From positions 6,214 through 70,213 of the forward strand of contig CAMRWU010000002.1 of NCBI GenBank assembly GCA_947054505.1: a stretch of 64,000 bases of DNA. The letters run 5' to 3'. This stretch comes from an uncultured Pseudomonadota bacterium (lineage in GTDB: Bacteria; Pseudomonadota; Alphaproteobacteria; RF32; CAG-239). Both the position numbers and the translations under genes were made by a program. Position 1 is the first letter of the stretch. Each line of letters starts with the position of its first letter. This document shows positions 42,827 through 61,995 of the stretch, one piece after another. The notes below the pieces were generated by a model. That model was not told the DNA's origin. It worked only from the letters and a program-made list of their open reading frames with translations, and did no database searches.

Positions 42827-42857
42827 AAAAACACCTCTTTATGAGGTGTTTTTTTAT
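42827..42857. terminator. terminator-like hairpin
   Basis: ACACCTC-TTTAT-GAGGTGT followed by a T7 run. Confidence 0.5.
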
Positions 42858-42869
42858 TAGATAGAGTAG

Positions 42870-57115: not shown

Positions 57116-57189
57116 TGCTTCATCGTCTAATGGTAGGACAGCGGACTCTGACTCCGTTAATCTTGGTTCGAATCCAGGTGAAGCAGCCA
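57116..57189 (+). tRNA. tRNA-Gln (anticodon CUG)
   Basis: hand-folded: acceptor UGCUUCA/UGAAGCA (U1-A72), anticodon stem GCGGA/UCCGU with loop CUCUGAC, T-arm CUUGG-UUCGAAU-CCAGG, encoded CCA. Confidence 0.8.
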
Positions 57190-57194
57190 TAATA

Positions 57195-57226
57195 AGCCCC
57201 CCGTTTTTTACGGGGGTTTTATTATG
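57195..57226 (+). terminator. rho-independent terminator after tRNA-Gln(CUG), copy 1
   Basis: CCCCCCG-TTTTTTA-CGGGGG followed by TTTTATT. Confidence 0.6.
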
Positions 57227-57365: not shown

Positions 57366-57372
57366 ATAAAAA

Positions 57373-57400
57373 AAACACCCATTAGAGGGTGTTTTTTTAT
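57373..57400 (+). terminator. terminator-like hairpin after the tRNA 3'-end duplicate
   Basis: ACACCC-ATTAGA-GGGTGT followed by a T7 run. Confidence 0.5.
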
Positions 57401-57524
57401 TGGCTGAAAAGAACCTGTTAAATTGCAAGGACAGCGACCGCAACCGCGCAATTGGTACTGGTTCTTTGACCGAAGCGTAGTTATTGAGCGTCAAACGCGA
57501 AATCTACGAAGCTAGAGCCTAAAA

Positions 57525-57553
57525 CCCCCGTTTTTTACGGGGGTTTTATTATG
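57525..57553 (+). terminator. second copy of the CCCCCGTTTTTTACGGGGGTTTTATTATG terminator module
   Basis: 29-nt identity with 57198..57226. Confidence 0.55.
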
Positions 57554-57928: not shown

Positions 57929-58069
57929 AGTGACAATAATTAAGGTTTGGACAAAACGATACTGTAAAGCTCTGTTTTTGTCAATATATTTCTTTTGGAA
58001 TGCCGAATTTAATTGACAAACAAGCTCAAATTATGGACAATTAATAAAAAAGCCGGAAAGGTAAAAGTT

Positions 58070-59647
58070 ATGACCGAAGAATATCGTCCTCACAAGAAAA
58101 AAAAGCCCAATTATAAAACAAACAGTCAAAGGGTAAACACAACTCCTGATAAACGCAAAGAAATATCCCCGCATCAAAACAGAAATCAGGCACAACTGTT
58201 AGAAAGGATGATACAAAAACCGGAATCTGTTTCTCCTCATCAGATAATGCATATTCTGGAACAATACCTCAGCAAAAGCGATATCAAACAACTGCAAAAA
58301 GGCAACGCCTCTGCAATCATAAAAAAATATGCCGCCATAATCAAACGCAAATACGTACAAGCCGTCGCCGCCGCTGATGTCCTCAATTACTGTTCTGCCA
58401 CGCCTGCAGCAATCCCCGATCGTTCAGACGAAATCAGGTTAGAAACAATGGAACAATTGCGTCGCAGAGTCCAAAAGAAATTTTTATCCAAAGAAAAATT
58501 TCAACAAATACACCAAACATTTTTTGCCGACATTGTCTCCAAAGACAGCCTTCCCAACACTCAAATTACAAAAATGTTACGTTGTATTGCCGCCGGCAAA
58601 CTCTATGCGCCGACTGATTTAAATGGAAAATTAGCCGAATATACTTTGTCTCCGGCCTATCGACGTTTCAGACAAAAACCGCAACCGTCTCTCAATCTCA
58701 AACCGGAAAACTACGACTTTTTCGGCATTGATGCGAAAGGAAAACCACTCTGCCCGATGTTTTATGCCACCAGTGGCAGTGCCAATGCTCACAAAATCAG
58801 CAAAGCGATAGCAAAAAGAATGGCTCAACTGGGGATTGCCCCTTCCGAAGCTTATAAATTCAACGTCGCGGATATTGCTCATATCATGCAAAAAGACGGA
58901 GAATTGCGAGACATTCCCTTCTCAGAAATTGCTCCTGACATCAAAGACAGCCCTTATCAAGAATTTGCCGACAAACTGGGACTAATTCTAAAAATCGGAA
59001 GAGGAAAAAACAACGACCACCGCAAAACAACCCAGCTATGGCTTGAAGAATTTGCAACGCCGGAACAAAAAACAGATTATGAAGACTATGGTTTTAGAGA
59101 CGGACTTGAATTATTCTTATCCGGCGCCGAAAAAATTTATAACAAATTATCAAAAGACTTTGCCGAAAAAGGCATCTCTCCCGATTTTTTGGACGCTTGG
59201 GCCGAAAGCCTGTGTGCCAACAAATCCCTAAACCCCAATTTGGCACAATGTCACCACCCCAAACCACACAAAATTGACATTCACCACTGGGAACGTCTCT
59301 CCTCAGCCACCAGCGATACCAGCACCGCCGACAAAAACAATCTCGATAATTTTGGAGTGATGATTATGTACACAAAAAACGACTTCGATATTCACGCCTC
59401 CATGCACAAAGGAGAAAGCGCAAGCTATATCACGACCAATCTGGAAAAAAAACAACAGGAATCCCCGCAAAAGAACCTCTTTTGCACCTCTAATTTTTTG
59501 TTCCTTTCATTAAACATCTTTCATGGCAGAAAAGACCGTACGGAAGAATTGAACAAAATCGATTATCTGCGGAGCAAAAAAGGAATAAATAACCCCAAGC
59601 CTATACTATCGCCGTTTTCCCCCTCTCATCAAAAAGCAAGATGTTAA
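58070..59647 (+). CDS. hypothetical basic protein (~525 aa), second member of the SG[SA]ANAH family
   Basis: start reset to ATG with GGAAAGG RBS; contains FYATSGSANAH, paralogous to 45830..47227. Confidence 0.45.
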   Translation: MTEEYRPHKKKKPNYKTNSQRVNTTPDKRKEISPHQNRNQAQLLERMIQKPESVSPHQIMHILEQYLSKSDIKQLQKGNASAIIKKYAAIIKRKYVQAVAAADVLNYCSATPAAIPDRSDEIRLETMEQLRRRVQKKFLSKEKFQQIHQTFFADIVSKDSLPNTQITKMLRCIAAGKLYAPTDLNGKLAEYTLSPAYRRFRQKPQPSLNLKPENYDFFGIDAKGKPLCPMFYATSGSANAHKISKAIAKRMAQLGIAPSEAYKFNVADIAHIMQKDGELRDIPFSEIAPDIKDSPYQEFADKLGLILKIGRGKNNDHRKTTQLWLEEFATPEQKTDYEDYGFRDGLELFLSGAEKIYNKLSKDFAEKGISPDFLDAWAESLCANKSLNPNLAQCHHPKPHKIDIHHWERLSSATSDTSTADKNNLDNFGVMIMYTKNDFDIHASMHKGESASYITTNLEKKQQESPQKNLFCTSNFLFLSLNIFHGRKDRTEELNKIDYLRSKKGINNPKPILSPFSPSHQKARC

Positions 59648-59913
59648 TGAAAAATTTTCTGTTACTGTTCATATTCTGGCTTTTATGTTCCTGCGTTTCA
59701 TACTATGATGAATACGAATACAGCTATAATGTCAACACATGGACTGGTTACAGTTATTATAACTCACCTCTGCGTTTGCGGGGGCTGAACACGACCGATT
59801 TTTATATGTTGGACCATCACCCCAAAGATTATTTTACAACTCAACTATGGGGAACGACAGGAAACCTCAGCCAATTTGCCATCCATAATATGTTCCAAAT
59901 CCTCACTCATTAA
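59641..59913 (+). CDS. small Tyr-rich lipoprotein
   Basis: lipobox LLCSC; 90 aa; 7-nt overlap with the upstream gene. Confidence 0.4.
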   Translation: MLMKNFLLLFIFWLLCSCVSYYDEYEYSYNVNTWTGYSYYNSPLRLRGLNTTDFYMLDHHPKDYFTTQLWGTTGNLSQFAIHNMFQILTH

Positions 59914-60031
59914 TAAAAAGCCTTTCGAGTAAAAAATTTGTCCTCCTAGTGTGATTGATTATGATAATTTGCGCTGATTTTGTTAAAATAGACTGGTGAG
60001 ACCGGTTCTATTTTAAGCAAAGGAGGCTGCC

Positions 60032-60487
60032 ATGAAACATCATCTGTCTTTGTTATGTTTCGCTTTAACGTCATTTTTCTTAATTGATAAAGAGGTAGCC
60101 AACCTCCTCTTAAAACAAAACCCTACACCACTGGAACCGACCTCATATGCTTCTTCCGGCGAAAGTTATCAGCTTGCCAAAGTGACGTGGTTGCCTGATT
60201 ATTTAGGTGATAACAAAAGCTATGGTGTCAACCGTGTTAATGACAGCGGCAATAAGGGGAGTAACAAGACTTGTGCAAATTATGGTTTGTTAAGCTCCTG
60301 TCCGGCACATTCTGTAGAAAAAGGCATCAAGCACCCTATTCCGGGGTTGACCTGTTATGAAGAATGCATTTGTGACACCTCTTATTATCAATACACAATA
60401 AAAACTTGCCGCGCCCCTAAAGTTCCCTCCGAAGAGTGCATAAATTCACTCTTCGGACAAACAACAGAAGCCGGTGTAAAAAAATAA
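60032..60487 (+). CDS. secreted cysteine-rich protein (module 1 of tandem family)
   Basis: signal peptide, strong AAGGAGG RBS, Cys-rich C-terminal half; ends at an in-frame TAA followed directly by ATG. Confidence 0.55.
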   Translation: MKHHLSLLCFALTSFFLIDKEVANLLLKQNPTPLEPTSYASSGESYQLAKVTWLPDYLGDNKSYGVNRVNDSGNKGSNKTCANYGLLSSCPAHSVEKGIKHPIPGLTCYEECICDTSYYQYTIKTCRAPKVPSEECINSLFGQTTEAGVKK

Positions 60488-61189
60488 ATGACAACACAAG
60501 GTACGGCTGTGACGCAAAGCCGTACGACAGCAAATTTAGAACAATATATCGGCTCCGGCGCCATGTCTTCAGCTTCCGCATTAAAAAGATATGCGCAATG
60601 CAATTGTCCTGCCGAATATAATAAAGATTCTTGTCCATCCAACTCTGTTTGTGAAGAATGTGACGGCAAATTCAAGAAAACCGGTTGTAACAGTGAATAC
60701 AACCGAACATTCACAGAAATAACAATAATAAAAGAAAATGCAAGTTGTCTGCGCTGTACTCATGAGGGCGTCACTCTTTATAGCTGTACTTGCAAAAGCG
60801 GATATGTTTTGAAGAAAGGTTCTACCCTCAAAGAAGACACATGTGTTCCGGACTGTGCCGGCTACACATTGACAACATGCCCTCCGGGAGGAATATGCGA
60901 AGAGTGTACGGTCAACAATACGACGAAACATCGCCTGAAAGATTGCGACGGAAGCAAAGGTTGGAAATACGGAAGCGGAACTTGTGAAGCCGTTCCTTGC
61001 ACCACGGGCTATACGGCCGATGTGACAACCTGCGCCAGTGGTAGCACCAAGCCGGATATTAGCTTGAGTGATGATTGGTCCGGTGGTCAACACTGCACAT
61101 CACTGGGATACACCAAAAATATATTAAACTGCATCGACAGAAACATCATCAAATGTCCGTTCGACAGTTCTAAAATATCATGTTTTTAA
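60488..61189 (+). CDS. cysteine-rich protein (module 2; same frame as 60032..60487, no signal peptide of its own)
   Basis: 233 aa with >25 Cys; C-terminal motif CTSLGYTK...C...KCPFDSSKISCF. Confidence 0.5.
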   Translation: MTTQGTAVTQSRTTANLEQYIGSGAMSSASALKRYAQCNCPAEYNKDSCPSNSVCEECDGKFKKTGCNSEYNRTFTEITIIKENASCLRCTHEGVTLYSCTCKSGYVLKKGSTLKEDTCVPDCAGYTLTTCPPGGICEECTVNNTTKHRLKDCDGSKGWKYGSGTCEAVPCTTGYTADVTTCASGSTKPDISLSDDWSGGQHCTSLGYTKNILNCIDRNIIKCPFDSSKISCF

Positions 61190-61213
61190 CACACCACGTT
61201 GAGGAGAAAATCT

Positions 61214-61723
61214 ATGCGTAACTTTTATCCTACAAAACTTATCTTGCCAACTCTGGCTTTGGGTTTCTCCCTGACAATGGGAACAAGCCTCTACGCCGCA
61301 TGCGTCCCCGATGACTGCGCATCGTTAGGATACACAAAATCCGCTTCCGAATGCGCCGGAATGGAGACAATCAAATGTCCGTTTGATGATAGCAAACTTT
61401 ACTGCCCTCAACCTCTTGTTATCTGTACGGAAGAAGATAGCGAATTTTGCAAAGAAAAATTCACATGTAGCCCTATCTGCTCCGGATACGAAAAAACGAT
61501 GAAGTATGAAGCCGAAATCAATTACAGAACCAATCAAATTTGTAAACCTGCCTATGCTGATGTAAACATTGATACAACCAAAGAAAAATGGGTAATTAGA
61601 TGGTGTATTGATGAATGTAAAGACGAATTAAAGTTTAGTTGTAAAAAGGAACCTCTCCCCGAGAAAAGCACCGAGATAGACATGACTACAAGCGAACAAA
61701 ACAAGTCAGAGGGATGGACATAA
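61214..61723 (+). CDS. cysteine-rich lipoprotein, paralog of 60488..61189
   Basis: lipobox-like signal (LYAAC); shares CASLGYTK...C...KCPFDDSKLYC with the upstream gene. Confidence 0.55.
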   Translation: MRNFYPTKLILPTLALGFSLTMGTSLYAACVPDDCASLGYTKSASECAGMETIKCPFDDSKLYCPQPLVICTEEDSEFCKEKFTCSPICSGYEKTMKYEAEINYRTNQICKPAYADVNIDTTKEKWVIRWCIDECKDELKFSCKKEPLPEKSTEIDMTTSEQNKSEGWT

Positions 61724-61933
61724 TCAACTCCAGCTACAGGACCCCAAAGAGGAAATAGTGGCGGCAGTGGATCAACTGGAGGCGACATCATTTGTAAAAA
61801 ATTTCGAAATATATGCGGGATGTATTGTCCTTGCATGAGAACGTTTCTTGATGGAGCGCATTTACAAGAAACTCAAGATAAAATACGCGGAGACGAAGGT
61901 TGGAATGATTGCAAATGTTCAAAAATTTCAATA
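61724..61933 (+). pseudogene. in-frame open extension downstream of TAA 61721..61723 encoding a Gly/Ser linker plus Cys-rich module (possible readthrough, disrupted gene or mis-called stop)
   Basis: 69 stop-free codons in the same frame as 61214..61723, encoding ...SGGSGSTGGDIICKKFRNICGMYCPCM...DCKCSKISI, whose ending resembles the family C-terminal motif. Confidence 0.3.
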
Positions 61934-61995
61934 TAATAGTTCTCCCACAAAAAAATCCTCCTGAAATTCAGGAGGATTTTTTCAATTATTACCGT

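Follow-up and report, generated by a model that had tools for sequence, protein, structure and literature searches.

Positions 60032-61933 of the window, by which we mean the whole 64,000-nt stretch of contig CAMRWU010000002.1 from an uncultured alphaproteobacterium, hold three open reading frames (ORF1, ORF2 and ORF3) and a stop-free extension that follow one another on the forward strand. As judged from homology and frame layout, these are two genes and not one: gene A, made of ORF1 and ORF2, and gene B, made of ORF3 and the extension. We consider it probable that the two are adjacent members of a recombining family of exported, Cys-rich proteins, each cut short by a fixed TAA nonsense codon, and that this is ordinary truncation and not a new mode of decoding. 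The reading is carried by the anatomy of the region, the homology across both stops, the fixation of these stops and the mosaicism of the family, which the comparisons below document. We infer that no full-length protein is made from gene A or gene B. Three in-frame ORFs and an open tail are hereby reduced to two nonsense-truncated genes, for which a recoding annotation is unwarranted. Truncation of this kind is a known phenomenon and the family itself is undescribed; the more valuable by-product of the analysis is this small unannotated family, so far seen only in uncultured gut Alphaproteobacteria.

ORF1, ORF2, ORF3 and the extension lie in one common frame, all of their start coordinates being 2 mod 3 (Table 1). 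The shared frame contains three internal stops in 636 codons versus ~26 expected from the stop-triplet frequency of the window (4.2%, at 41% GC), and the entire stretch is therefore coding-like. Cys accounts for 5.3% of residues in ORF1, 9.9% in ORF2, 7.7% in ORF3 and 8.6% in the extension, compared with 1.56% in the other long ORFs of the window. N-terminal hydropathy (12-residue values) was signal-like for ORF1 (2.57) and ORF3 (2.05) and not for ORF2 (0.97), in agreement with an earlier note on this DNA that had assigned a signal peptide to ORF1 and none to ORF2. That note described same-frame ORFs split by TAA codons at 60485 and 61721; the frame and both codons stand, but it passed over a third TAA at 61187-61189 and the 24-nt spacer with GAGGAG behind it, and the extension it counted as 69 codons has 70. 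A 32-residue motif, CxSLGYTK..C..KCPFDxSKxxC (the C-motif), occurs as HCTSLGYTKNILNCIDRNIIKCPFDSSKISCF in ORF2 and as DCASLGYTKSASECAGMETIKCPFDDSKLYCP in ORF3. The shared C-terminal motif of the note is thus real in both, but it is C-terminal only in ORF2; in ORF3 it is placed immediately behind the signal peptide. The end of the extension (...DCKCSKISI), previously taken for a variant of the same motif, is instead part of a distinct tail module with a cysteine spacing of its own. No match above threshold came from scanning the ORFs, the extension and two upstream ORFs against Pfam, NCBIfam and PHROGs.

Table 1. Sequence features of genes A and B and their flanks (window coordinates).
Feature	Coordinates	Strand	Remarks
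Promoter-like sites	59938..59989	+	TTGTCC-16-TATGAT; ATGATA-17-TAAAAT with TG before; upstream of gene A
Leader hairpin with T-rich tail	59991..60007	+	Terminator-like match; identical in L015, kept along with the 5' cassette
Gene A Shine-Dalgarno AAGGAGG	60020..60026	+	
ORF1	60032-60484	+	151 aa; 5' part of gene A
A7 run and TAA number 1	60478..60487	+	A7 at 60478-60484; inside the variable linker behind the N-domain
TAA number 1	60485-60487	+	ATG 60488 directly abutting (TAAATG)
ORF2	60488-61186	+	233 aa; rest of gene A
Conserved 34-nt segment encoding KRYAQCNCPAEYN	60589..60622	+	Near-invariant between otherwise diverged linkers/paralogs
C-motif of gene A	61091..61186	+	Motif hidden Markov model, 65 bits
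Gene A stop TAA	61187-61189	+	Relatives finish ..CPFDxxKxxCF at equal position
Gene B Shine-Dalgarno GAGGAG	61201-61206	+	Within 24-nt spacer after TAA 61187-61189
ORF3	61214-61720	+	169 aa; gene B as far as the nonsense codon
TAA number 2	61721-61723	+	In frame; truncates gene B
Extension	61724-61933	+	70 codons without stop, then TAA TAG; cut-off 3' end of gene B
Hairpin terminator	61950..61982		Free energy (dG) -20 kcal/mol, z -6.1; shared with convergent adhE

ORF1 consists of a signal peptide and the family N-domain (..AKVTWLPDYLG..GLTCYEECICDTSYY..; also given as ..AKVTWLPDYLG..GLTCYEECVCDTSYYKY..). Alignment with relatives placed TAA 1 inside a variable Ser/Thr-rich linker between the N-domain and the Cys-rich modules; ORF2 continues in the order linker, modules predicted to be disulfide-rich beta-hairpins (EGF/furin-like) and C-motif. 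When ORF1 and ORF2 were concatenated into one query, 88-96% of it was covered by single proteins, namely P0004 (383 aa), P0005, P0006, P0007, P0009 and P0012, and an ORF2-like region follows the N-domain within the same chain in 34 N-domain proteins. Neither a Shine-Dalgarno sequence nor a hydrophobic signal-like N-terminus was found for ORF2, in contrast to ORF1 and ORF3, whose Shine-Dalgarno sequences are strong. TAA 1 is confined to one linker allele, present in the window and on contigs L015 and L040; no protein crossing TAA 1 with the window's linker was found among 5.8 billion clustered proteins, and a pattern scan of JGI metagenome contigs returned 0 matches to a sense-codon allele at this position. 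A perfect 8-bp hairpin (GUACGGCU..AGCCGUAC) is located at 60501-60525, 13 nt behind TAA 1, and is not significant when compared with shuffles; an alternative GTG start at 60509, used by some gene callers, is in its loop.

Gene B is built differently. ORF3 begins with a Sec-type signal peptide (..SLYA/AC), followed by the C-motif at 61313-61408 and a variable Cys-rich body. Its only close relative, the 234-aa protein P0002 on contig L007, is identical across the signal peptide and the C-motif and strongly diverged thereafter. Where the window has TAA 2, P0002 has sense codons (..DGWKSHISGGGG..), and its frame stays open through ..SDGWKSHISGGGGGGSNTLGCGRIKNCATYCQCRK...GCTCGDPFANIN to finish just ahead of the position of the window's hairpin terminator. 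The flanks of L007 are 97-98% identical to the window, and L007 is therefore an allele of the window locus in a sister strain, in which a ~50% diverged cassette takes the place of the gene B middle and tail between near-identical flanks. The comparison with orthologs that the earlier note had proposed has thus yielded a longer uninterrupted ORF in both cases (P0004 and others for ORF1 plus ORF2, P0002 for ORF3 plus the extension); at neither TAA do the orthologs have two separate genes, and in one of them the extension is coding sequence.

The extension and the P0002 tail have a common layout, with a Gly/Ser linker preceding a Cys tail module. Cysteines in the tail of the extension are spaced C-x6-C-x3-C-x-C-x27-C-x-C-x5-end. 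Among 1618 stop-to-stop segments of >=60 aa in all DNA fetched, this end-anchored pattern occurred only in three distinct sequences: the extension, the tail of P0002/L007 and that of an 843-aa family member on L022. Global alignment of the extension with the P0002 tail gave z = 3.4, a score matched by 11 of 2000 shuffles, and BLASTP between the extension and P0002 was not significant (E = 0.21). Position, cysteine spacing and the shuffle test together argue for homology of the two tails. The extension has no start codon context of its own. The terminator sits behind the extension and not behind TAA 2, and the identical terminator directly follows the intact gene B in L007.

On comparative evidence, the third stop, at the end of ORF2, is a true and conserved gene boundary: ORF3 is equipped with a ribosome-binding site and a signal peptide of its own, and the A/B pair is met again in other genomes. 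On L016, L018, L019, L029, L030, L031, L037 and L039, an A-type gene precedes a B-type gene that carries a separate ribosome-binding site, an AxA-type signal peptide and the C-motif. A single gene comprising ORF2 and ORF3, as the shared frame might suggest, was rejected in view of ORF3's own initiation and export signals and of the pair not sharing a frame in L016 or L018. The two genes are in frame in the window, in L019 and L039 and in the closely related L029, L030, L031 and L037, which are too few independent instances for the frame to carry meaning. Nonsense mutation in one modular gene, as the earlier note had it, is correct insofar as uninterrupted relatives span both internal TAAs, but two genes are affected and the boundary between them is conserved. 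Fission into coupled cistrons, also proposed there, is a misfit for ORF1/ORF2, since ORF2 is devoid of ribosome-binding site and export signal, and loosely describes the A/B pair, which is fused in P0015.

In P0015 and a few other proteins the A and B parts form one chain with the C-motif internal; fission or fusion at the C-motif was noted on L029, L030, L031, L037 and L026 and in P0015, P0074, P0089 and P0030. In more distant metagenome-assembled genomes (MAGs), gene A ends with ..EEAYWSGL and a stop exactly where other members run on into YWC.VP..DC..LGY, and gene B supplies a signal peptide and the C-motif and runs on into an Lcl_C/DUF1566 (PF07603) lectin-like domain. These B partners thereby resemble Lcl_C/DUF1566 proteins, and P0015 presents the same arrangement as a single chain. 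In contrast, gene B of the window has another Cys-rich body and tail with no Lcl_C match.

Both internal TAAs are real and fixed and are not read errors. Twelve independent assemblies are 100% or 99.97% identical to the window, 11 of them covering TAA 1 and all 12 covering TAA 2; the comparison drew on Logan short-read contigs, ENA assemblies and the NCBI MAG GCA_965646365.1. The exact ORF2 protein is encoded on 19 contigs and the exact 169-aa ORF3 product on at least 21. Contigs L001-L006 and L009-L013, from many unrelated sequencing runs, are 100% identical over up to 3.7 kb, which suggests a single clonal strain that has been widely sampled. Base-call errors or chimeric joins could in principle create such stops, and two observations might favour them: the 5' part of gene A belongs to a multicopy cassette (described below) at which eight assemblies break, and indel-like anomalies are present in a paralog from one MAG of the window species. 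Eight contigs (L001-L005 and L010-L012) break at 60279 inside ORF1 and L009 starts at 60254; such breaks are as expected because the 5' cassette is multicopy. An artefactual origin of the TAAs is effectively refuted by the twelve assemblies, of Logan, ENA and NCBI origin, being base-for-base alike over both stops.

Could these fixed stops be decoded? An alternative genetic code was rejected, as TAA is the usual end of long ORFs and no stop codon is out of use (TAA 26, TGA 6 and TAG 3 among 35 long window ORFs). Slippage on the A7 run with a -1 frameshift was also rejected, given that ORF1 and ORF2 are already in frame with each other and the -1 frame stays open no further than 60621; the tract length is A7 throughout (window, L008, L015 and L040), with no polymorphism. 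There remains leaky or programmed decoding, in which low-level TAA readthrough would add full-length products of both genes to the short forms, or TAAATG reinitiation would take place, and the stops would set an isoform ratio. Such decoding would accommodate downstream frames that are fully open with their cysteine patterns intact, a stop and an ATG that abut, and a terminator that is present only behind the extension. It would also accommodate the ratio of nonsynonymous to synonymous polymorphism (pN/pS) of ~0.11 between the split alleles P0013 and P0014, a value that recombination with intact donors explains equally well. Yet the stops are missing from the orthologs and from nearly all relatives, TAA is the main terminator of the genome, and a reinitiation product would be a Cys-rich protein with no export signal. 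RNA folding downstream of the stops was no better than that of shuffles (z of -0.4 for TAA 1 and +0.6 for TAA 2), and no suppressor tRNA was found in the window, where only tRNA-Gln ttg and tRNA-Gln ctg occur (Rfam: just two tRNAs). Conservation of the stop codon in relatives, taken as a mark of readthrough, likewise fails, with P0002 being sense at TAA 2 and 34 relatives continuous at TAA 1. To our knowledge, no efficient programmed UAA readthrough has been established in bacteria. Leaky decoding is accordingly very unlikely, and the programmed readthrough that the earlier note had listed gained no positive evidence.

No further stop or frameshift was found in the 233 plus 70 codons behind the two TAAs. 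Under the truncation that we prefer, this lack of secondary decay would fit either a recent date of the lesions or copies refreshed by recombination. The assemblies of the window strain are identical and offer no variation to score for selection.

Recombination is evident from the alignments, in which the family is strongly mosaic, a shared 5' cassette being joined to different 3' parts at the conserved ..CNCPAEYN.. sequence. The cassette runs from 59911 to ~60622 (~710 nt) and comprises the promoter-like region, leader hairpin, ribosome-binding site, ORF1, the TAA-ATG junction and the first 45 codons of ORF2. It is 97% identical in L015, and its upstream promoter-like region is 85-87% identical in two L014 copies; recurring at 85-97% identity at L014 (twice), L015 and L038, it behaves as a genomic repeat. 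Between the window and L015 only 5 of 591 coding nt differ before the two sequences diverge abruptly at 60623, just behind ..YAQCNCPAEYN. The conserved 34-nt segment (Table 1) coincides with this window/L015/L040 breakpoint as well as with the out-of-frame deletion junction of L014 copy 2, and may be a recombination hotspot. L015 represents another locus, beside TetR/RND genes; in another genome this locus is occupied by the intact 639-aa P0005. In L015 and L040 the TAA cassette is joined to 3' parts that are 99.8% and 96.8% identical, respectively, to the intact L016 gene. At 59961-59966 the -35 hexamer of the window is ATGATA and that of L015 is the consensus TTGACA; given this non-consensus -35, the window copy of gene A may also be weakly transcribed.

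As far as their sequences tell, disruptions of family copies are common and heterogeneous. The copy at L038 6001-7133, from MAG GCA_965646365.1 of the window species, is truncated and deleted: behind a 179-aa N-domain-only ORF lies an orphan C-terminal module of 180 aa in a different frame. At L039 3800-6130 in the same MAG, parts of an A-type signal region lie in three different frames, with two locally compensated frameshifts. The lesions in L038 and L039 would be either real decay or indel errors of this MAG. L014 copy 2 is frameshifted by its deletion, as are the tails of several short relatives, and ORFs made of the N-domain alone are found repeatedly, with different N-terminal types (P0017; P0018 with P0019). 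Each copy examined comes with a promoter-like region, a ribosome-binding site and a signal peptide of its own.

If both genes are truncated in this way, gene A would yield only a 151-aa product of signal peptide and N-domain, and ORF2, with neither a ribosome-binding site nor an export signal, would be a silent leftover. Reinitiation at the abutting ATG would place a disulfide-dependent protein in the cytoplasm, where it would not mature. Gene B would yield a 169-aa exported protein missing its last 70 residues. Because the 5' cassette joins different 3' parts at a conserved segment, broken copies are common and can be spread or refreshed by recombination.

Several observations weigh against this picture. 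All six tail-module cysteines are intact in the extension. The TAA-bearing linker allele is found at two loci, the adhE-adjacent one of the window and the TetR-adjacent one of L015, and is joined to three different 3' parts of 233, 273 and 487 codons that are all fully open. Two nonsense codons in adjacent genes, both TAA and with no second lesion in 233 plus 70 codons, are tidy for random decay. The low pN/pS between P0013 and P0014 is what continued function predicts, recombination being equally good an explanation, and the TAAATG layout is compatible with termination-reinitiation.

In a rival model, the stops are tolerated or used. The TAA cassettes and truncated copies would be "off" or short-form states of a recombination-driven variable family, with disrupted copies also serving as sequence reservoirs, and cassette exchange at conserved junctions would switch a locus between full-length and truncated expression. 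Consistent with such a model, two loci share one TAA cassette, which is combined with three 3' parts, a 99.8% identical 3' part is found on an intact 5' cassette (L016) and on the TAA cassette (L015), the TetR-adjacent locus is intact (P0005) in one genome and split in L015, breakpoints fall inside the conserved 34-nt segment and N-domain-only ORFs recur (P0017; P0018, P0019). Functional pseudogenes and silent cassettes provide a general precedent (reviewed in PMC4534519). Nevertheless, we regard the model as unlikely. There is no within-sample polymorphism, both TAAs being present in every assembly of the window strain, and the copies seen are each provided with a promoter-like region, a ribosome-binding site and a signal peptide, unlike an expression site served by promoterless cassettes. 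Coverage of contigs L015 and L040 is low (2.1x and 1.4x), and the heterogeneous lesions elsewhere, deletions as well as frameshifts, are expected from plain decay. A more specific form, in which the TAA 5' cassette is itself a movable off/short-form module exchanged at ..CNCPAEYN.. that switches between N-domain-only and full-length protein, possibly with low-level readthrough, seems to us more doubtful still; if true, switching would be by cassette-borne nonsense codons instead of repeat slippage.

The family shares features with the variable antigen systems driven by gene conversion, such as Anaplasma msp2/p44, Neisseria pilE/pilS, Borrelia vlsE and Mycoplasma vsa/vlp (PMC4534519). In both, the genes are multicopy with conserved 5' ends, variable downstream parts and a sizeable share of disrupted copies, and alleles are mosaic with breakpoints inside short conserved segments. 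The differences are that no single expression site with promoterless donors exists among the copies seen here, that no within-strain switching was observed, and that there is no sequence homology to those families.

For the truncation itself, the premature-stop (PMSC) alleles of the surface-protein gene inlA of Listeria monocytogenes reportedly offer a bacterial parallel. The likeness lies in a point nonsense mutation fixed in a clonal lineage, with the exported N-terminal part kept and C-terminal modules lost. The protein family, the organism and the envelope type are different, however, and here two neighbouring genes are affected, one of them by a stop so early that ~60% of the gene is an orphan ORF.

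To learn about the nature of the encoded proteins, we modeled ORF2 with AlphaFold2 (AF2) from 34 aligned relatives. The model is a beta-hairpin chain with a mean predicted local distance difference test (pLDDT) score of 76, exceeding 80 for residues 40-180, and its first 35 residues (the linker) are disordered. A Foldseek search of this model against the PDB gave no match at E <= 1e-3; the top non-significant matches were NELL2 EGF1-6, Pvs25/Pfs25, Delta-like 1 and R-spondin furin-like repeats, all extracellular and disulfide-rich. ORF2 scored 14.1 bits against cEGF, below the threshold of 26.6, and the window ORFs stayed under every Pfam threshold; weak cEGF matches were also present in P0004 and P0008, and the relative P0012 passes Ephrin_rec_like PF07699 (35.8 vs 23.1). 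The modules resemble EGF, furin-like (R-spondin Fu1-Fu2) and Ephrin_rec_like PF07699 repeats in being predicted disulfide-rich beta-hairpin units with CxxC spacing, and differ from EGF/furin-like repeats in that the window ORFs are sub-threshold in Pfam and the fold matches are not significant. As folds of this type need oxidative folding outside the cytoplasm, the predicted structure makes it unlikely that ORF2 is functional alone. The AF2 model of the N-domain (pLDDT 56) was too poor for use. Giardia variant-specific surface proteins (VSPs) are comparable by analogy, having similar Cys-rich modules; the proteins described here are bacterial and Sec-exported, with no transmembrane tail or other VSP signature. 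We infer a surface or adhesin-like character for the family proteins.

The family is rare: searching with an N-domain profile retrieved 203 cluster representatives (E <= 1e-3) among 1.84 billion. The domain nearly always occupies residues 1-140 of long proteins, which have a median length of 502 aa (114 of 160 reach 300 aa or more), and of the 24 family proteins bearing the C-motif, 18 have it at their very C-terminus. At the genome level, the N-domain was detected at 21 loci in six MAGs of uncultured gut Alphaproteobacteria, labeled "uncultured Azospirillaceae" or "Alphaproteobacteria bacterium ... roe deer cecum". Each MAG holds three to seven or more family copies, often at contig ends, and the window itself has no second copy of the locus elsewhere. 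The window species has alphaproteobacterial flagellar genes including FlaF, and no viral relatives were found. There is no Pfam model for the N-domain or the C-motif, and literature searches found no description of this Cys-rich exported-protein family. Families of this kind are candidate sources of proteins that bind hosts or particles, and of variation between strains, in a gut lineage of which little is known.

Upstream of gene A, two ORFs of 544 aa (58013-59647) and 90 aa (59641-59913) overlap by 7 nt; these are the upstream ORFs included in the domain scans above. The 90-aa ORF has a lipoprotein-like N-terminus (..FWLLCSC..), and the two are not kept beside other family copies. Further upstream, repeated terminator-like hairpins with a GC stem and a T run are located at 57193-57226 and 57520-57553, near tRNA-Gln(ctg) at 57116-57189, and also at 42827-42858 and 57370-57401.

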